DNA of 22,255 nucleotides from a virus. Taxonomy: Duplodnaviria > Heunggongvirae > Uroviricota > Caudoviricetes. The DNA lies in the IMG/VR virus record IMGVR_UViG_2648501165_000011. The stretch is one strand, 5' to 3'. The notes under the pieces are model-generated. The model saw only the letters and a program-made list of their open reading frames with translations. It was not told the DNA's origin and did no database searches. This document shows, in pieces, positions 3,701 through 21,154 of this stretch. Made by a program: the position numbers and the translations under genes. The first letter of the stretch is position 1, and every line of letters starts with the position of its first letter.

Positions 3701-4160
3701 CGCTTTCACCCCACGTCACATCCTGGAATACATGCGACCAGTCGCCTTCGGAAGAGGGCAGACGGGGTTTTGGCTCCGGCAGGTGTTCTGCCTGCGGTGT
3801 GCCCTGACTGCTGCGCGTGATGCGAACGCGTTCCCGCAGGGGGAGCGTAAACAGGAGATCGGCGCTGTCATCGTCATTGATAACGGCGGAAAATTTGATG
3901 TCCTGATTACGCTCCGGATTGAGCAACAACTGTGGCTGATTTTCGGATAACCACGCCAGCAGCGGCAGCGTGAGGTCGTCCAGCTCTCCGGTGTAATCCA
4001 TGACAAACATCACCATCTGATAGCGGTAAACAAACGAGGGCGTTTCTCCGGTCGTTTCAATGTTGCCGCTCTCCACGAAAATGGTGAATTTTTCCGGGTT
4101 AGCCTGACACCATCGGCATGAACGGGTCATGGCTTCACGCAGGGAATCAGTTTTCAGCAT
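3693..4160 (-). CDS. R: Tail completion protein R (P2 gpR-like)
   Basis: 155 aa, MLKTDSLREAMT...LLAWLSENQP; same length and N-terminal pattern as P2 gpR from memory; sits upstream of S. Confidence 0.8.
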   Translation of the reverse strand: MLKTDSLREAMTRSCRWCQANPEKFTIFVESGNIETTGETPSFVYRYQMVMFVMDYTGELDDLTLPLLAWLSENQPQLLLNPERNQDIKFSAVINDDDSADLLFTLPLRERVRITRSSQGTPQAEHLPEPKPRLPSSEGDWSHVFQDVTWGESDG

Positions 4161-4437
4161 GGTTGTTGTCCTCGTTGTTCAGTCGTTGCAGCCTGCGCTG
4201 TTCCAGTAATTCAATGGCCCGTTTATCCGCGTTACAGGTTTCCAGTGCATCCAGAAGGCGGTCGCCCCATATACCGAGATTTCCCCATGTGGGAGTATCA
4301 GGGAAGGGGGGAGGTATTACCGGCATGGTCAGCGTCTGCGGTATAAGCCGGACTGACGGCGCTGACCGTGGCGCGTTCTGCGTGCCTGCGCAACCTGTCA
4401 GTAAAACGAGCGTCAGGCAAAGCGTGGGCGCATTCAT
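4147..4437 (-). CDS. lysC: Rz1-like outer-membrane spanin lipoprotein (LysC-like), embedded out of frame in the LysB gene
   Basis: ORF 4147..4467; from internal Met at 4437 the product begins MNAPTLCLTLVLLTGCAG, a lipoprotein signal with LTGC lipobox. Proline-rich body and embedding in the Rz-like gene are typical of Rz1/LysC. Confidence 0.7.
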   Translation of the reverse strand: MNAPTLCLTLVLLTGCAGTQNAPRSAPSVRLIPQTLTMPVIPPPFPDTPTWGNLGIWGDRLLDALETCNADKRAIELLEQRRLQRLNNEDNNHAEN

Positions 4438-12414: not shown

Positions 12415-12939
12415 TCAGGTGTTCTTTTTACCTTCTGTCAGTGGGCATAACCATCCACTATTTACATCACTTAGCTGATGCGTTCTTTCCTCGTGCTTCT
12501 CCTGCCACAATGCTTTTCCGCCAGCCTTTATGATGGCTCTTTCAACATCCCGCTCGTATCGCAAGGGCTGAAATACGTTATTAATGAAATATTCGCTTAT
12601 GTCCGGAAGCAATACTGCAAAATTATTGGTTTGTTGCGCCGTTCGGCTATGCAGCAAAGCGGCATACTTTAATGCGTCCTGTGCTTTCTGGAATTTCAGT
12701 GCATGCTCAGTGGCGATTTTTTCCAGTTCAGCGATCCTGTTGTCTTTGGTTTCCAGCTCTTCCAGCAGCTCGGCGATAATGTCCATTTCCTGATGACGGA
12801 TTTGACGCTTAAACGCCGCCACTGCTTCGCTACAATCCTGCTCAGCATTTGGGTTATCCGTGGTGGCCTCATACCACGCCAGCGTCGATTGATAGTTTTG
12901 TGCCGCCTCACGTAATGCCTGATAGTTGATTTCGCTCAT
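12415..12939 (-). CDS. Ead/Ea22-like family protein (unknown function), accessory cargo gene
   Basis: 174-aa ORF with AAGGAGA RBS 7 nt before ATG 12939. N-terminus MSEINYQALREAAQ... and coiled-coil segment ELLEELETKDNRIAELEKIA resemble the Ead/Ea22-like proteins of E. coli prophages as I remember them; C-terminal half has no recognisable motif. Confidence 0.5.
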   Translation of the reverse strand: MSEINYQALREAAQNYQSTLAWYEATTDNPNAEQDCSEAVAAFKRQIRHQEMDIIAELLEELETKDNRIAELEKIATEHALKFQKAQDALKYAALLHSRTAQQTNNFAVLLPDISEYFINNVFQPLRYERDVERAIIKAGGKALWQEKHEERTHQLSDVNSGWLCPLTEGKKNT

Positions 12940-12976
12940 TATGTCGTTCTCCTTGTTTATGTTCTGAGGTGGAGAG

Positions 12977-12994
12977 CAGGGCGAACCCGCCCTG
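12977..12994. repeat. Perfect hairpin CAGGGCG-aacc-CGCCCTG between parR stop and the Ea22-like start
   Basis: 7-bp perfect stem read from sequence; no T-tract on either side. Confidence 0.5.
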
Positions 12995-13002
12995 ACGTTG
13001 TG

Positions 13003-13314
13003 TTATTCAGGAAATAACGCCCGGATATTTCCGGCCATCTGACTGGTTATCTGTGCGGTTGGTGCTGGCTGTGACACGGGGCGTTCTGTCCTGGTTTGTG
13101 TCAGGGATAACGCTTCATCGTCAGCCCATGCAGCCAGTCGGTAAGCCTCTGCCGGATTAATTTTCATAAGTGCCAGTCCGGCCAGAAAAGCCACACGTTG
13201 ACCACTTTTGCGGGCTTCTGGTGTAAGGCTGTCCAGCCAGGCGCATGCTTCGCCTTCGTTCTTGACGGCGGCGGGCTTCAGATAGAAACTTATCCGTCTG
13301 GTTGGTGTCGTCAT
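13003..13314 (-). CDS. parR: ParR/StbB-like centromere-binding adaptor (ribbon-helix-helix), type II partition
   Basis: ORF 13003..13449; from ATG 13314 the product MTTPTRRISFYLKPAAVKNEGEACAWLDSLTPEARKSGQRVAFLAGLALMK...NIRALFPE parallels plasmid R1 ParR as remembered (RRTIAFKLNPDVNQ...LDSIPQGERSRLNRAALTAGLALYR...ILRSLFPKE). Immediately downstream of parM. Confidence 0.7.
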   Translation of the reverse strand: MTTPTRRISFYLKPAAVKNEGEACAWLDSLTPEARKSGQRVAFLAGLALMKINPAEAYRLAAWADDEALSLTQTRTERPVSQPAPTAQITSQMAGNIRALFPE

Positions 13315-13318
13315 TGGT

Positions 13319-14278
13319 TTACTCCTTGTCCATTGCGTACAGCCCATTAACCAGAGCAAACTGTGGCACCCCGTCCGCGATGAAAGTCGCATTAACTCCG
13401 CAGGCTTCGCGGATAGCGGGTGCCACAATCTCCGCCCCGCCACCGACAACCATCACCCGCCCGTAACCCGAAAAACCCGCCAGCGCGCGGATCACGCGTT
13501 GTTTCAGTGTTTCTTCCTTTTCACGAATAACCGCCATCAGGCTGTCGTAATGCGCGTCATTGTGGATGTGCTGGCGCAGCCAGGCTTCATTATGGCGATG
13601 TTCGATAATGGTATTGGCGATGTGGTGACTGGTACGCATACCGTTAGTGGCCATCACCGACAGTACGGCATCGGCCATCAGGGAAACGCCTACGTGTGGA
13701 TCGCAAAACACCTGGCTGATACCTGCCAGTTGTCCCTGAACCTTTGCCACATCCAGCGTGGTTCCGCCTAAATCCACAATCAGCAGGGATTCAAACGGAC
13801 TCATGTCAGCCAGTGCTTTAAAACCAGCCGGAATGGATTCAGGCATAACCCGTACGTTACGGATAGTGAATGCTTTTCCGTTCTGGTACGCCACCGGGCG
13901 CATGACGTTTGCTTTTTTGCGGTTGATGTTGGCCATGTCCGGCTGTGCGTTTGTGTCGAAATATTCGCTCAGTGGCAGGGTGACAACCACATCCACTTCC
14001 TGTGGTGTGATGCCTGATTTGACCAGCGCGTGATGAATGGCAATGACATTCACATCGCTGTACTGGTATTGCGTGTCGGTCGTCTGGACAAAGCGATCGC
14101 TGACCGGATCAAAACCATAGCGCACGCCATCAAGCATGTAGTTCGCGGGCTGCGTGCCACCGAACGGCGCAGACCATTCCGACTTGAAGCTGTTCGGGCT
14201 GATGGCGTTGCGGCGTTCGCCGTTCTCAGTCCATGCCAGCTTGATGTTGGTGGAGCCGTCATCGATACAAATTTTCAT
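13319..14278 (-). CDS. parM: ParM/StbA-like actin-type segregation ATPase
   Basis: 319 aa; MKICIDDGSTNIKLAW, ISPNSFK, YQYSDVNVIAIHHAL, VMPESIPAG, LIVDLGGTTLD, SGYGRVMVVGGGAE, LVNGLY track plasmid R1 ParM almost motif for motif (actin-fold phosphate-1, connect and adenosine motifs). AAGGAAAA RBS before ATG 14278. Confidence 0.85.
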   Translation of the reverse strand: MKICIDDGSTNIKLAWTENGERRNAISPNSFKSEWSAPFGGTQPANYMLDGVRYGFDPVSDRFVQTTDTQYQYSDVNVIAIHHALVKSGITPQEVDVVVTLPLSEYFDTNAQPDMANINRKKANVMRPVAYQNGKAFTIRNVRVMPESIPAGFKALADMSPFESLLIVDLGGTTLDVAKVQGQLAGISQVFCDPHVGVSLMADAVLSVMATNGMRTSHHIANTIIEHRHNEAWLRQHIHNDAHYDSLMAVIREKEETLKQRVIRALAGFSGYGRVMVVGGGAEIVAPAIREACGVNATFIADGVPQFALVNGLYAMDKE

Positions 14279-17145: not shown

Positions 17146-17511
17146 TTACTTCGTCATGCCATTCAGGGTGTCGCGGCAGACTGTAGCCAGCCGCTGAATT
17201 TCCAGCACGGTGTCTTCTGTGTCGGCATGGCGATGTGTGATGCGGATGCTGTCGGCAATCACATCGACGATTGCAGAGGATGGGCGCTGGTAAATGCCAA
17301 TAACGGACGGGGTGCCACCTTCAATGCGGTAAAGCCTGTAATTTCCCTCGTGGCTGTCAATCATGTAGCGACCATCAATAACAATCTTTCCGTCAGCGAG
17401 CTGCGGTACAGGCAGGGATTTCAGGTACATGTCATAACGATCACGCACGCGAGCGGCAAGATCACGTTCTGTGTTGAGCAGGTATTCAAGAAAGTCGTTG
17501 GCGAGAATCAT
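17146..17511 (-). CDS. Hypothetical protein (121 aa) directly upstream of A
   Basis: ORF with AAGAGGA RBS before ATG 17511; compact non-repetitive composition; no motif recognised. Confidence 0.5.
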   Translation of the reverse strand: MILANDFLEYLLNTERDLAARVRDRYDMYLKSLPVPQLADGKIVIDGRYMIDSHEGNYRLYRIEGGTPSVIGIYQRPSSAIVDVIADSIRITHRHADTEDTVLEIQRLATVCRDTLNGMTK

Positions 17512-17583
17512 TGCGGCAATCCTCTTGTTACAGATGTGCGAAGGCCTCCCGCCGCAAGGTGCAGGAAAGGCCCGGAACAGGAG

Positions 17584-17814
17584 TTAATGGAGTTTGTTTT
17601 GCTGCTGGATGAGCTGTTGAAGCTCGTGCAGATCATCCGCCAGATAGCTGAAAACAGAGGCGGAATAAATGTTTGATAGTGCGTGGCTGCGCTCATGCAG
17701 CATATTGATGTGCATGATTTGCGCGACGCGTGATGCGCGGGAAAGTCTGCGGTTGATTTCAGTCTGGATGTGACGACGCTCCGCGATAGCGCGGTGTGGT
17801 TTGCGGTTTGCCAT
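17584..17814 (-). CDS. Hypothetical small basic protein (76 aa)
   Basis: ORF with AAGGGG RBS 7 nt before ATG 17814; helical, Arg/His-rich, no Cys; no family recognised. Confidence 0.4.
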   Translation of the reverse strand: MANRKPHRAIAERRHIQTEINRRLSRASRVAQIMHINMLHERSHALSNIYSASVFSYLADDLHELQQLIQQQNKLH

Positions 17815-17993
17815 GGTGTGGCCCCTTGTGTAGTAAGTTGTGAAAACTCACCATCCAGAGCTGCGAAACTGTGGGTGGCGAGACGTACGAGGTTCGCAGT
17901 ACCGGCTACACAAGAACCCGGCCCGACCGAAGTCGGCCCCGTACGCCCCGCCATAATTCTGACGCGAAAAAAACGTGGCAATACAGTACGCAC

Positions 17994-18014
17994 AAAAAAA
18001 CCGCTGGCGCGGTT
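17994..18014 (-). terminator. Intrinsic-terminator-like hairpin (AACCGC-ggcc/tggc-GCGGTT) followed by U7 on the minus strand, inside the early operon
   Basis: Read on the reverse complement: stem then TTTTTTT; lies in a 320-bp non-coding gap between the 99-aa and 76-aa ORFs. Confidence 0.45.
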
Positions 18015-18136
18015 GTGCGCTTGTGTAGTCAGCAGGCTGCGAAACCCGGCACCCGTTTTGTGAGGTGCAGCGGAAATGTAACCTGACTGATTGCGGCATG
18101 GCAAGCGGTTTTTTTGTGTGTGCATGTTCTGGTTTC

Positions 18137-18878: not shown

Positions 18879-18963
18879 TACGCCTCCTTGGCGTGTGCGA
18901 ATACCTCCGCGAATGCGGATTGTTTTACATTTTCTTATTTAATCTGTGGTTTTATTTGCTCTG

Positions 18964-19077
18964 TTATTCGCCAGTGAAAAAGCGTTCAATCTTTTTTATT
19001 GAATGAATAATTCGCATAATCCCAATAGCGCAGGCCACCGAAATAATTAGAACAAGCCATGAGATAAATATACTCAT
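18964..19077 (-). CDS. Candidate small membrane peptide (37 aa, single TM: MSIFISWLVLIISVACAIGIMRIIHSIKKIERFFTGE)
   Basis: Found by manual translation (below the ORF-track size cutoff); ATG 19077 overlaps the stop of the upstream gene (ATGA). Hydrophobic core followed by a basic tail. Confidence 0.35.
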   Translation of the reverse strand: MSIFISWLVLIISVACAIGIMRIIHSIKKIERFFTGE

Positions 19078-19316
19078 GCGATATTCCCCAGCTTATACGG
19101 TTCAATATGTTCCCCGCACTCTGCGGCACAGATCAGCTCGGAAAGTTCGTTAAGTGCATCCAGATCATCAGCGTAAAAAGCCACGTCATACAGACTTCGG
19201 ATTGCTCTGGTCAATGAGTCACGGGCCGCACGTTCAGCATGAGCGCCTGATGCACTTAAGCGAAAATAAAAACGCTCAAGTGCTTTGTTAATGAGAGTTT
19301 TATATTCTTTGCCCAT
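19074..19316 (-). CDS. Hypothetical protein (about 80 aa)
   Basis: ORF 19074..19319 (first codon GTG, ATG at 19316); helical, no motif recognised. Confidence 0.5.
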   Translation of the reverse strand: MGKEYKTLINKALERFYFRLSASGAHAERAARDSLTRAIRSLYDVAFYADDLDALNELSELICAAECGEHIEPYKLGNIA

Positions 19317-19327
19317 CACAACGCCCT

Positions 19328-19615
19328 TTAATCTGCTTTCTGTATTTCAGCTTCTGAATCCATACAAATAATTTCGATATAGGGTTCATCGCCATTAACC
19401 TGGCGTGCCTTTTCAGCTTCGCTAATGATTTCTCGTACGGTCTGGTACGGAAGTTCCACAAGCAGTCGCGTGCCGTTCAGATAAACGTAAGTGGCTTCGT
19501 CGGCTCCGTTTTTACCCGCCGGAGTTACTCCGTCAATAGCGGATGCACGTAATAACAGTTCACCGCGAAAATCAATAAAACGGATAAATACACCTTGTGC
19601 ATGGTCTTTGGTCAT
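19328..19615 (-). CDS. Hypothetical protein (95 aa)
   Basis: ORF 19328..19729 overlaps the upstream gene; internal ATG 19615 gives a non-overlapping 95-aa product (MTKDHAQGVFIRF...). Confidence 0.45.
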   Translation of the reverse strand: MTKDHAQGVFIRFIDFRGELLLRASAIDGVTPAGKNGADEATYVYLNGTRLLVELPYQTVREIISEAEKARQVNGDEPYIEIICMDSEAEIQKAD

Positions 19616-19625
19616 AAAGCACCTG

Positions 19626-19967
19626 TTATAAATCAGCCTGTTTAATAAAACTTTGCCCGCGAAGCAGACGATCAACCGTGCGAAGTGCTTCGTATAATGT
19701 GAAATCCTGCCCGAACTGATTGTCGCCACTGCTTAGAGCAAAAATGCGGTTTCCGGTAAACGGATTGCGTGGGCATTTGTGGATCACGATTCCAGCTTTC
19801 TCAATCAGCCAGGCATGCTCGCCGATTTGTTTTACTGGGTAGCCATCCGGCGTTGCGTGTGTATCACTCAGGCTGTAGCGGATGTTGCTGCGTGATGCAC
19901 TGGTAGCAAAACGGTTAGCGTGGCGTTCTGCACCATTGCGAAAGCGTGAATTACGTTGCTGTTTCAT
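19626..19967 (-). CDS. Hypothetical early protein (113 aa)
   Basis: ORF directly preceded by a 35-aa ORF (TAAcATG junction); occupies the slot of P2 B / 186 cII-region genes, but I cannot assign it from sequence. Confidence 0.5.
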   Translation of the reverse strand: MKQQRNSRFRNGAERHANRFATSASRSNIRYSLSDTHATPDGYPVKQIGEHAWLIEKAGIVIHKCPRNPFTGNRIFALSSGDNQFGQDFTLYEALRTVDRLLRGQSFIKQADL

Positions 19968-19968
19968 G

Positions 19969-20076
19969 TTAAAGACTCTGTACAGATTTAATTATTCCGG
20001 CATAGAGGCCGAACTCAAAATATTTGCGATTAAATCGCATCGCATTGTTTTCACGTTTTGCGGACTGCTGGTTCAT
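19969..20076 (-). CDS. Candidate small ORF (35 aa, MNQQSAKRENNAMRFNRKYFEFGLYAGIIKSVQSL)
   Basis: Manual translation; GGAGG RBS 9 nt before ATG 20076; stop abuts the next gene's ATG. Confidence 0.3.
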   Translation of the reverse strand: MNQQSAKRENNAMRFNRKYFEFGLYAGIIKSVQSL

Positions 20077-20126
20077 TTTCGTTTGCCTCCGCACATGAGA
20101 ATTGCGCCGCTTAAGAGGTAACCGAA

Positions 20127-20151
20127 GTTAATTGATAGTATTACAATTAAC
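20127..20151. promoter_or_regulatory. Perfect 8-bp inverted repeat GTTAATTG-N9-CAATTAAC in the early-operon spacer
   Basis: Read directly from the sequence; AT-rich palindrome typical of a dimeric DNA-binding-protein site. Confidence 0.35.
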
Positions 20152-20219
20152 ATAAGGTCCAATTTGTCCATGCCACACATAATTACCCTCATTGCAGTAG
20201 TTGTGGGTTGTCAGGTTTC

Positions 20220-20426
20220 TCACCCGATAAACCAGATAACAAACGCTATAAACATCGCCCCAATAGCTGCCGGGAAAAGTCCTTTGGTATAAGCGGCGAT
20301 ATATTCAATGCTGAGTTCAATAAAGCGTTCTTCATGTCCCGTTAACTTGCGAAACAAATAGATCTCTATTACGCCTATCTCAATAAAAACAAGGGTCAGA
20401 ATGGCGCTGATGATATGGCTGGTCAT
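20220..20426 (-). CDS. Small membrane protein (68 aa, 2 predicted TM), positional analogue of P2 orf78
   Basis: ORF directly after cox; two hydrophobic stretches (IISAILTLVFIEIGVIEIYLF and LFPAAIGAMFIAFVIWFIG). Confidence 0.5.
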   Translation of the reverse strand: MTSHIISAILTLVFIEIGVIEIYLFRKLTGHEERFIELSIEYIAAYTKGLFPAAIGAMFIAFVIWFIG

Positions 20427-20432
20427 TTATGA

Positions 20433-20720
20433 CTAAAGTCCCAGCCACAACAACCATGCGTCGCGGCGTTCTTTCGGTTGCTCAAAAAACGCTTTGCGCA
20501 TGCCTTCGTTAAATGCTGGCAGATATACCCAGTTTTCTGATGCACGCGTCTTTACTGAACCTGGTTTCACAAAGTCAATTGTCGGTAGCTTTGCTGCGTC
20601 AATCATGGTTCTGACTGTGGATTCCTTGCGGCCGATCATCTTGGCGAATAGTTGATATGGCACCGCTTCAAGTGGATATGGTGCTACCTGAATGAACCCC
20701 CCAAGCTCTGATTCGCTCAT
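20433..20720 (-). CDS. cox: Cox-like excisionase / early-lytic repressor
   Basis: 95 aa; AVPYQLFAKMIGRKESTVRTMIDAAKLPTIDF...NWVYLPAFNEGMRKAF...RRDAWLLWLGL parallels the remembered P2 Cox (IPYQEFAKLIGKSTGAVRRMIDKGKLPVID...YWVYLPAWNNG...IRDGWLMWLGL). Divergent from C; GGGAGA RBS. Confidence 0.85.
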   Translation of the reverse strand: MSESELGGFIQVAPYPLEAVPYQLFAKMIGRKESTVRTMIDAAKLPTIDFVKPGSVKTRASENWVYLPAFNEGMRKAFFEQPKERRDAWLLWLGL

Positions 20721-20833
20721 TGTGGTAATCTCCCTAATTCGTTCGAATGGCTCAAAATGGCTTATATCGGCTTATTTGAGTGTTTTTATGTTTGTGCCCG
20801 ATGTGGCATGTTGCGATGGAGGATATGCCCGAT
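20721..20833. promoter_or_regulatory. cox/C developmental switch region (early-lytic and repressor promoters and operators)
   Basis: 113-bp spacer between divergent cox and C; contains three GGCT(C/T)A direct repeats at 10-bp phasing (20750, 20760, 20770) and a 15-nt direct repeat TGCCCGAT(G/A)TGGCAT at 20795..20809 and 20826..20840, the second overlapping the C start codon. Confidence 0.6.
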
Positions 20834-21154
20834 ATGGCATCTTTGTCAAGCATGGGTGAAAAATTTCGCCTGATTCGTGAAGCAGAAGGTATGACCCGCC
20901 AGGAGTTTGCGGATTGTGTTGGGCTGCCTTATGGGACGGTAACTAACTATGAGGTGAGGGGGAAGCAAGTAACAGAGGGTGCCTTACTTAAGGTTACGAA
21001 ACACCCTAAATTTAAGAAGTATGCTTATTGGTTATCAACAGATGAAACGATGCCGGAGGTCGGGCAAATTTCTCCGGCTCTCTCTCTTGATGGTTCCTGC
21101 AATTCGGAGGGAGATCGCGTTTCAACCGAAACAATCCAAAAATTATCCCGCTGA
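20834..21154 (+). CDS. C: Immunity repressor (P2 C-like, HTH)
   Basis: ORF 20780..21154; likely start ATG 20834, 10 nt after GGAGGA. EKFRLIREAEGMTRQEFADCVGLPYGTVTNYE...KFKKYAYWLSTDETMPEVGQISPAL parallels the remembered P2 C (EKIVLMRKSEYLSRQQLADLTGVPYGTLSYYE...QFTKYTLWFMTNQIAPESGQIAPAL). Confidence 0.8.
   Translation: MASLSSMGEKFRLIREAEGMTRQEFADCVGLPYGTVTNYEVRGKQVTEGALLKVTKHPKFKKYAYWLSTDETMPEVGQISPALSLDGSCNSEGDRVSTETIQKLSR

Follow-up and report, generated by a model that had tools for sequence, protein, structure and literature searches.

Four small reading frames under purifying selection in the early operon of a P88-like prophage of Escherichia coli

In phage 186 two small, non-essential genes, fil (75 amino acids, aa) and dhr (66 aa), follow apl and cII in the early operon and are annotated in the phage record as inhibitors of cell division and of host DNA replication, respectively; according to the same record, translation of A needs translation to proceed to the end of orf84. 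In phage P2 the slot right after cox is occupied by a single small and basic open reading frame (ORF), orf78 (56 aa), the stop codon of which overlaps the start of gene B by 4 nucleotides (nt). The equivalent part of an early operon was analysed here in a window of 22,255 nt, by which we mean the whole stretch of DNA available under the IMG/VR record IMGVR_UViG_2648501165_000011, belonging to a P88-like prophage of Escherichia coli (Xuanwuvirus, Peduoviridae, P2 family). Four small ORFs of 68, 35, 35 and 37 aa, hereafter p68, p35b, p35 and p37 (Table 1), are found in this operon, and on balance we take all four to be genuine genes that are translated as part of the early lytic (Pe) operon, named after its early promoter.

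The resemblance to the described systems is one of position. As a comparison of the operon maps suggests, the small ORFs share with fil and dhr the property of being small early-lytic genes just downstream of the genes of the lysogeny switch, and the dependence of A on orf84 in phage 186 is of the same kind as that proposed below. However, the sequences of Fil and Dhr are not clearly transmembrane, unlike those predicted for p37, p35b and p68, and neither BLASTP nor profile comparison found significant similarity of any of the four ORFs to Fil or Dhr. BLASTP did align p35 with Dhr over 17 aa (53% identity, with E = 0.003 against a database of three sequences), but this match was discounted, as it involves residues specific to the allele of the window and the profile comparison gave a probability of 0.6% and E = 0.1. 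Orf78 of P2 is likewise not hydrophobic and is not similar to p68, p35b or p35, and its slot holds one ORF compared with three here.

Two further groups of small membrane proteins offer likenesses of architecture. The superinfection-exclusion proteins of the T4 Imm type are small, have two predicted membrane helices and are made early. In architecture p68 would resemble them, but it has no Pfam match to an Imm or Sie family and is encoded in the context of a temperate P2-family phage. Among bacteria, small membrane-protein regulators and type I toxins of 30–50 aa span the membrane once, carry a basic cytoplasmic tail and either bind larger membrane proteins or perturb the membrane (PMC12648545). 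Compared with those peptides, p37 and p35b are phage-encoded, embedded in an operon and coupled to upstream genes, with no antisense partner found and no membership of their families.

Selection on the small reading frames

The sequence-only reading of the window, made without database searches, had pointed to three small ORFs, p37, p35 and p68, two of which were thought to encode membrane peptides. All three are present, each on the minus strand, and hydropathy bears out the membrane prediction for p37 and p68; p35 is not hydrophobic. A fourth ORF, p35b, had been overlooked and also encodes a predicted membrane peptide. ORFs of such lengths are frequent by chance, 65 of at least 30 aa being found within 4.7 kb, so that their mere presence proves nothing; and with at least 95% identity among most database copies, the four could be non-functional chance frames which look conserved merely since the prophages that carry them are near-identical.

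The relatives against which this was judged comprised 83 loci anchored on the downstream gene for the DUF4761 protein, 49 anchored on p68, 80 metagenome loci anchored on the gene for the DUF4754 protein, and one remote locus; scans of genome contigs and metagenomes yielded close relatives only and no deep orthologues. A lack of frame conservation among relatives had been named in advance as the observation that would count against the small ORFs. Instead, the frames persist at a nucleotide divergence of 31–40% and disruptions are rare. Even alleles that differ at 24–40% of nucleotides keep the start, stop, length and hydrophobicity, and show a low ratio of non-synonymous to synonymous polymorphism (pN/pS) in the claimed frame only. 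The Salmonella orthologue of p37 (50 aa), which is only 34% identical and follows a DUF4754 protein of 53% identity, retains the ATGA overlap with its upstream gene and consists of one helix and then a basic segment.

The pN/pS values were obtained from Nei-Gojobori counts summed over pairs of alleles and, as the pairs are not phylogenetically independent, they are descriptive ratios rather than formal tests. For p37 (35 alleles) the ratio is 0.18 in frame, compared with 1.65 and 1.81 in the +1 and +2 frames, and the variable sites are distributed 11/3/21 over the three codon positions. The values for p68 (22 alleles) are 0.39 in frame against 0.73 (+1) and 1.22 (+2), and those for p35b (5 alleles) 0.39–0.43 against 0.72 and 1.66. 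The p35 family gives 0.42 in frame against 0.93 and 1.10, with 0.17–0.45 over its core motif in a colinear alignment. Random-mutation simulations were run at the observed divergence of 31–32% of nucleotides for p35b and 24–27% for p68. The ORF was kept in 4–7% of simulated trials, the observed pN/pS was reached in at most 0.3% and the observed hydrophobicity in 0.5–7%, whilst no trial combined a retained ORF with low pN/pS and hydrophobicity (0 of 4000 for p35b, 0 of 2000 for p68).

All four small ORFs are under purifying selection at the protein level, with clear frame specificity. The idea of chance frames is already contradicted by these data, and we give it next to no credence.

Overlapping junctions and partner genes

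That stop and start codons overlap or abut within the early operon, as the sequence-only reading had proposed, is borne out, and the junctions are conserved across relatives. Its further statement, that each small ORF is placed by such an overlap or abutment or by a good ribosome-binding site, holds for p37, which starts within an ATGA, and for p35, which has both an ATGA and a strong Shine-Dalgarno sequence (SD), but holds less well for p68, which merely abuts the preceding gene and has a weak SD.

The start codon of p37 overlaps the stop codon of DUF4754 as ATGA in all 106 relative loci and in all 71 independent metagenome loci, and its SD, GGGGA, is of moderate strength (−5.5 kcal/mol). In every relative with enough sequence to show it, DUF4754 is followed by p37, which thus belongs to the core of the P88-like lineage as the companion of DUF4754. 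The peptide (MSIFISWLVLIISVACAIGIMRIIHSIKKIERFFTGE) has a helix at residues 3–21, with a best 19-residue Kyte-Doolittle score of 2.68 that indicates one transmembrane helix, and a basic tail, RIIHSIKKIERF; its gene has a GC content of 34% compared with 47–49% in the flanks. A one-base slip in a run of five T at the 3' end of the gene (18964–18980) produces a widespread 45-aa form ending in KKIERFSLANNRANKTTG. The 37-aa and 45-aa forms are both common in databases, and their tails differ after KKIERF and have themselves diverged; since the longer form carries another tail from that point, the tail is not constrained. A lipoprotein signal (SVAC), judged by eye, was rejected, as Cys16 is not conserved (it is Ser in one relative, L045, and the Salmonella orthologue lacks it) and the N-terminus has no basic stretch. 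Sequence searches of the PDB with the DUF4754 and DUF4761 proteins returned chance matches only.

Beyond p37, the gap at 18879–18963 (minus strand), which is empty in the window, forms a second variable slot of the early operon in relatives. There, the distance from the start of p37 to that of the following 67-aa gene is about 200, 466, 640–651 or 915–959 nt, and the inserts (among loci L008, L024, L044, L005 and L004) are ORFs of 105 aa, of 136–138 aa, or of 122 and 109 aa together, in the same orientation.

Translation of p35b probably starts from the ATG at 20180, as this is preceded by a GAGGG SD of moderate strength (−6.1 kcal/mol), whereas the ATG of the longest ORF, at 20192, has none. 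The peptide, MCGMDKLDLMLIVILSINFGYLLSGAILMCGGKRK, is laid out as MCGMDKLDL-MLIVILSINFGYLLSGAILM-CGGKRK, that is, an acidic N-terminus, one predicted transmembrane helix (hydropathy 2.13) and a GGKRK C-terminus, with a conserved polar residue, Asn18, within the membrane segment. An untranslated gap of 39 nt separates it from p68, and its TGA stop falls within the ATGA at the start of p35; the stop of p35b and the start of the next gene form an ATGA in 53 of 53 loci. Diverged alleles (L065, L107 and L109) keep the 35-codon ORF, a strong AAGGAG SD, the helix and a K-rich tail. In one protein collection clustered at 90% identity, p35b and the unrelated p35 were assigned to the same cluster, probably an artefact of clustering very short sequences.

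The ATG of p68 lies 6 nt past the stop of cox and has a weak SD (−3.9 kcal/mol); across relatives, 81 of 83 loci keep it within 0–10 nt of the stop codon before it, whichever gene precedes it. Two hydrophobic helices are predicted (19-residue hydropathy 2.1 and 2.26), and an AlphaFold2 model built from 14 homologues, with a mean predicted local distance difference test (pLDDT) score of 70, places helices at residues 2–29, 32–47 and 51–67. A charged loop, KLTG..ERF, is conserved and Glu16, within the first helix, is invariant. The protein matches PHROG 14475 over its full length (residues 1–68 of 68, E = 1.1e-41); as this family has no known function, membership is silent on mechanism. A profile search of 1.84 billion representative proteins returned only five clusters, the remotest homologue (71 aa, E = 2.8e-5) being encoded just after Cox in a different P2-like prophage, L136, where it is preceded by a 33-aa membrane ORF. 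Further down the same prophage, a 70-aa single-pass protein starts within the end of an 80-aa gene, an arrangement that echoes DUF4754 and p37 without detectable homology (the loci of interest lie at 3877–3978, 4001–4216 and 6245–6457 of L136). That this ORF is a p37 homologue could not be demonstrated, since it matches only the generic LapA_dom family.

In contrast to the other three, p35 is basic (isoelectric point 10.2) and, with a best hydropathy of 0.21, is not a membrane protein. Its SD, GGAGG, is strong (−9.5 kcal/mol), whereas that of the following DUF4761 gene is weak (−2.4 kcal/mol), so that translation of the latter probably depends on coupling; the p35 stop lies 1 nt before the DUF4761 ATG, a spacing kept in 46 of 47 loci. 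The two are fused in frame into one protein of 152 aa in 14 of the 49 loci that bear p68, and elsewhere p35 occurs as free forms of 35, 48 and 62 aa. Where p35b stands directly before DUF4761, the latter begins MNKQQ at the very ATGA junction that serves p35 in the window. In nucleotide alignment, the p35 forms differ from the DUF4761 of relatives lacking p68, p35b and p35 by a segment of about 105 nt after ATGAAT, with only the KQQRNS codons repeated, and in the split forms an extra base separates the two reading frames. From the ATG and first codons (MNKQQ), which p35 shares with the DUF4761 of relatives without the cassette, the extra segment and the existence of both fused and split forms, it follows that p35 is an N-terminal module of DUF4761 which can be detached, some phages having the fused and others the split form. 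Within the 113-aa protein the Pfam DUF4761 model begins to align at residue 9, and a search with p35 by itself returned no match to it. An origin of p35 as a diverged tandem duplicate of the entire DUF4761 N-terminus was rejected, as KQQRNS alone is shared. A single-sequence AlphaFold2 model of DUF4761 (pLDDT 63, N-terminal 32 residues disordered) is weak and Foldseek found nothing below E = 0.6 in the PDB, so the protein yields no functional lead.

The same observations could be read as the history of a scar: a segment inserted into the 5' end of DUF4761 would have left p35 as a leader ORF, kept solely to deliver ribosomes to the weak DUF4761 start. The ATG and KQQRNS codons that p35 shares with the DUF4761 of cassette-less relatives, the disparity between the two SDs and the near-invariant 1-nt spacing all agree with this, as do the last eight or so codons of p35, which are read in another frame in the fused type, and the one natural frameshift that is tolerated (1 of 21 loci of the window type). 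However, the core of p35, [RG]F-R-YF--G-Y-G, is under the purifying selection described above, with synonymous turnover that includes all four Gly codons at one position; moreover, p35 has been retained as three free forms as well as a fusion. A similar RRYF-G motif also recurs in other contexts, beside an unrelated gene of about 200 aa: as RRYFKHGQLVG in locus L005 and RRYLKKGKFLG in L074, a separate 31-aa ORF in one and a C-terminal extension in the other (at about −1285 to −1190 relative to DUF4761 in L005, and in the C-terminus of a 181-aa ORF in L074). We thus consider a mere leader unlikely.

Taken together, the small ORFs have the structure of translationally coupled genes, namely a conserved overlap or near-abutment, and the weak SDs of DUF4761 and p68 hint at a dependence on upstream translation. 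Ribosomes ending on cox, p35b, p35 and DUF4754 would re-initiate on the next cistron, and such re-initiation would hold p35 and DUF4761, and likewise DUF4754 and p37, at set ratios. DUF4761 and p68 should be the most dependent on it because their SDs are weak.

The accessory cassette and its prophage

Together p68, p35b and p35 are an AT-rich accessory cassette (41% GC, compared with 47–49% in the flanks), and the slot that it occupies, next to the first early gene, is variable. Many relatives pass straight from Cox or an Apl-like gene to DUF4761 without it, and where present it follows any of at least four first early genes that are unrelated to one another. The constant member is p68, on whose presence that of p35b always depends. 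In the set of 49 loci with p68, the order p68-p35b-p35-DUF4761 of the window is the most frequent (21), followed by p68 and then the p35::DUF4761 fusion (14), p68 directly before DUF4761 (5), p68 with the 48-aa p35 (3), p68 and p35b with the 62-aa p35 (2), and p68 and p35b followed by DUF4761 (2). In the remaining two p68 is disrupted, once by an insertion sequence (IS) element and once by a frameshift. Two IMG/VR loci, L048 and L108, have about 1.4 kb inserted behind codon 56 of p68, so that the leading gene of the cassette is knocked out naturally; in the chromosomes of E. coli 95NR1, 95JB1 and O111:H8 strain 8B the match falls into two parts on either side of an IS3-family IS1203 element, which probably reflects the same event.

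Over 2.2 kb around the small ORFs, the DNA is 99.8% identical to Xuanwuvirus P88_4B11 (NC_049391), with matching annotation, and many E. coli chromosomes are equally identical to the small-ORF region, again with matching annotation. Of 5426 complete E. coli genomes, 1400 match this stretch, 260 of them over at least 80% of its length, whilst the complete cassette is present in 235 and any match to p68 in 332. Homologues of p37 and p35 are confined to Escherichia, Shigella and Salmonella; those of p68 are also found in Citrobacter, and none of the four extends beyond the prophages of these genera. None of the four peptides scored above threshold against Pfam, NCBIfam or PADLOC (best DUF5540, E = 0.039, for p68 and DUF6007, E = 0.21, for p37), and p37, p35 and p35b had no match to PHROGs at E ≤ 0.1. 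The suggestion that such peptides are routinely missed by annotation is only half right, since RefSeq/PGAP lists p37 (WP_000021652.1) and p68 (WP_000200503.1) as hypothetical proteins but omits p35 and p35b. The phage records NC_049391 and PV340564 annotate all four, and all four exact peptide sequences are already in public protein collections.

Judged by an annotated chromosomal copy of identical sequence, the window covers the right half of a prophage integrated beside pdxB. Its tail, lysis, capsid, terminase and portal genes are followed by ParM-like genes and gpA, after which come the early operon, cox, repressor and int. On the minus strand, the early lytic operon runs cox, p68, p35b, p35, DUF4761, p95, DUF4754, p37, a 67-aa gene, a MarR-like gene, a 99-aa gene and gpA (Table 1).

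Table 1. Positions and supporting evidence of early-operon features in the window
Feature	Position	Strand	Evidence
Candidate early promoter Pe (TTGACA, 18-nt spacer, TATCCT)	20820..20849	-	Consensus scan, 10/12 matches
cox, first early-operon gene (excisionase and Pc repressor family)	20433..20720	-	Pfam Phage_Cox, E = 1.3e-22; annotated as Cox family DNA-binding protein
p68, 68-aa predicted protein with two transmembrane helices	20220..20426	-	PHROG 14475, hydropathy, AlphaFold2
p35b, 35-aa predicted single-pass membrane peptide	20073..20180	-	SD, selection, simulation; gp42 in NC_049391
p35, 35-aa basic soluble peptide	19969..20076	-	SD, selection, fusion forms
DUF4761 protein, 113 aa, downstream partner of p35	19626..19967	-	Pfam DUF4761 (PF15958), E = 2e-69
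p95, 95-aa gene	19328..19615	-	Operon map
DUF4754 protein, 80 aa, upstream partner of p37	19074..19316	-	Pfam DUF4754, E = 2.8e-54
p37, 37-aa predicted single-pass membrane peptide	18964..19077	-	ATGA overlap, selection, RefSeq WP_000021652.1

The candidate Pe sits upstream of cox and faces the divergent repressor gene, which fits the layout of Pe and Pc in P2. Promoter-like matches in the region are no commoner than chance (5 found, 4.8 expected by the consensus scan), so that position is the sole argument for this candidate. Terminator-like matches are slightly above the shuffled expectation (7 against 4.1); one of them, a 6-bp inverted repeat and then a T-rich run at 20025–20044, lies within p35 and is terminator-like on both strands.

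An accessory, AT-rich set of genes encoding predicted small inner-membrane proteins invites comparison with the HK97 gp15 and P22 Sie proteins, which block superinfecting phages at the inner membrane. The cassette might accordingly be a moron-type fitness or exclusion module, with an internal promoter, so far overlooked, driving p68, p35b and possibly p37 in the lysogen and their products blocking superinfection there. Its presence behind at least four different first early genes, and in 235–332 complete E. coli genomes compared with about 1400 for the backbone, would suit such a module. However, the cassette is within the Pe operon in the same orientation, its p68 start keeps its near-fixed distance from the preceding stop, none of the promoter-like matches lies upstream of p68, PADLOC gives no match, and the weak SD of p68 points to dependence on the translation of cox. 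We therefore doubt that the cassette is expressed in this way, and prefer to regard it as part of the early lytic operon.

A different proposal would make p37 and p35b membrane-depolarising toxins of the type I toxin-antitoxin kind. Toxins of the Ldr, Hok and Fst types are small, with one helix and a basic tail, and p37 and p35b are alike in size and architecture. Against this, no Pfam toxin family is matched, Rfam places no antisense or small RNA family over 18900–20450, its only hits nearby being C4 and isrK at 17.9–18.1 kb, and, with promoter-like matches at chance level, neither gene appears to have a promoter of its own. In every locus, moreover, both are coupled to upstream protein genes, unlike the stand-alone, translation-blocked mRNAs of type I toxins. 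We regard this proposal as highly improbable, and retain that of early-operon genes.

The Rfam hits, all on the minus strand, are a C4 antisense RNA (83 bits, E = 4e-16) at 17871–17958, the isrK Hfq-binding RNA (64 bits, E = 1e-12) at 17994–18068 and a weak match to the c4-a1b1 target at 18029–18081. The C4 and isrK RNAs thus belong to the part of the early operon that separates the 99-aa gene from gpA. A 205-aa ORF (17508–18125), named a transcriptional regulator in NC_049391 and not called by PGAP, overlaps them and is probably a spurious call over a module of the P1-like c4/icd/ant type. The interval from the portal gene to gpA holds, at 12415–14278 (minus strand), ParM-like genes, genes of a plasmid-partitioning family and a gene of the ead/Ea22 kind.

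Possible functions and significance

If the four ORFs are genes of the early lytic operon, transcription would begin at the early promoter upstream of cox; the C repressor would shut Pe in the lysogen and thus keep them silent, and their products would be made within minutes of infection or induction. The positive-inside rule predicts an orientation of p37 and p35b in which the N-terminus is outside and the C-terminus inside, and p68 may insert as a hairpin with the charged KLTG..ERF loop in the cytoplasm. All three have the predicted hallmarks of small inner-membrane proteins, a helix of about 19 residues or more flanked by positive-inside charges, and the helices are retained in diverged alleles. 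As p35b never occurs without p68 and both conserve a polar residue within the membrane (Asn18 and Glu16, respectively), the sequences suggest that these two pair with each other. Similarly, the strict overlap of DUF4754 and p37 suggests that these two work together, and so do the split and fused forms for p35 and DUF4761. By analogy, the membrane proteins might, early in lytic growth, bind some machine of the host inner membrane and modulate it, for takeover or for the exclusion of competing phages, rather than serve lysogenic conversion, although we hold this view with low confidence.

More speculatively, p68 and p35b could form an unrecognised two-part membrane device, paired via Glu16 and Asn18 and made in early lytic growth, which disables a host inner-membrane machine or bars competing phages or membrane-based defences; p37 would then tether or regulate the soluble DUF4754 protein and p35 would be a split-or-fused module controlling DUF4761. 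We consider this full picture improbable as it stands.

Several points should caution against too ready an acceptance of four early lytic genes with such roles. The membrane topology is predicted from hydropathy and charge rules alone, and the assignment of function is purely an analogy of position, as there is no similarity to Fil, Dhr or Orf78. The sequence-only reading had named host takeover, superinfection exclusion and anti-defence as frequent roles of such peptides, but none of the searches gave a pointer to any of the three. Literature searches covering DUF4761 and DUF4754, Xuanwuvirus, the WP_ accessions, P88 and the fil and dhr genes of 186 turned up no functional data on these ORFs, and the lack of an internal promoter is judged from a weak consensus scan only, so that some expression in lysogens may occur. 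A pN/pS of about 0.4 for the cassette genes amounts to moderate constraint, and the C-terminal tail of p37 is polymorphic through the frameshift described above. Finally, natural knock-outs occur: besides the disruptions of p68 and the single frameshifted p35, p37 is truncated in 3 of 71 metagenome loci. These occasional losses show that the small genes are dispensable for carriage of the prophage.

This set of genes is an ordinary example of the small accessory genes of a temperate-phage early operon, and nothing in it overturns current understanding. P88-like prophages with p37 match about 1400 of the 5426 complete E. coli genomes, or about a quarter, and the p68 cassette 4–6%; given that prevalence, these predicted small membrane proteins are common in clinical and animal isolates, yet two of the four genes, p35 and p35b, are missing from RefSeq/PGAP. 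The split and fused forms of p35 and DUF4761, along with the strict ATGA junctions, are well suited to the study of translational coupling and of the modular evolution of very small proteins. As inducible or spontaneously active members of the group, P88 and phiSM, exist (PMC5285337, PMC6456863), these prophages offer a workable system for studying the role of small membrane proteins in temperate-phage early operons.

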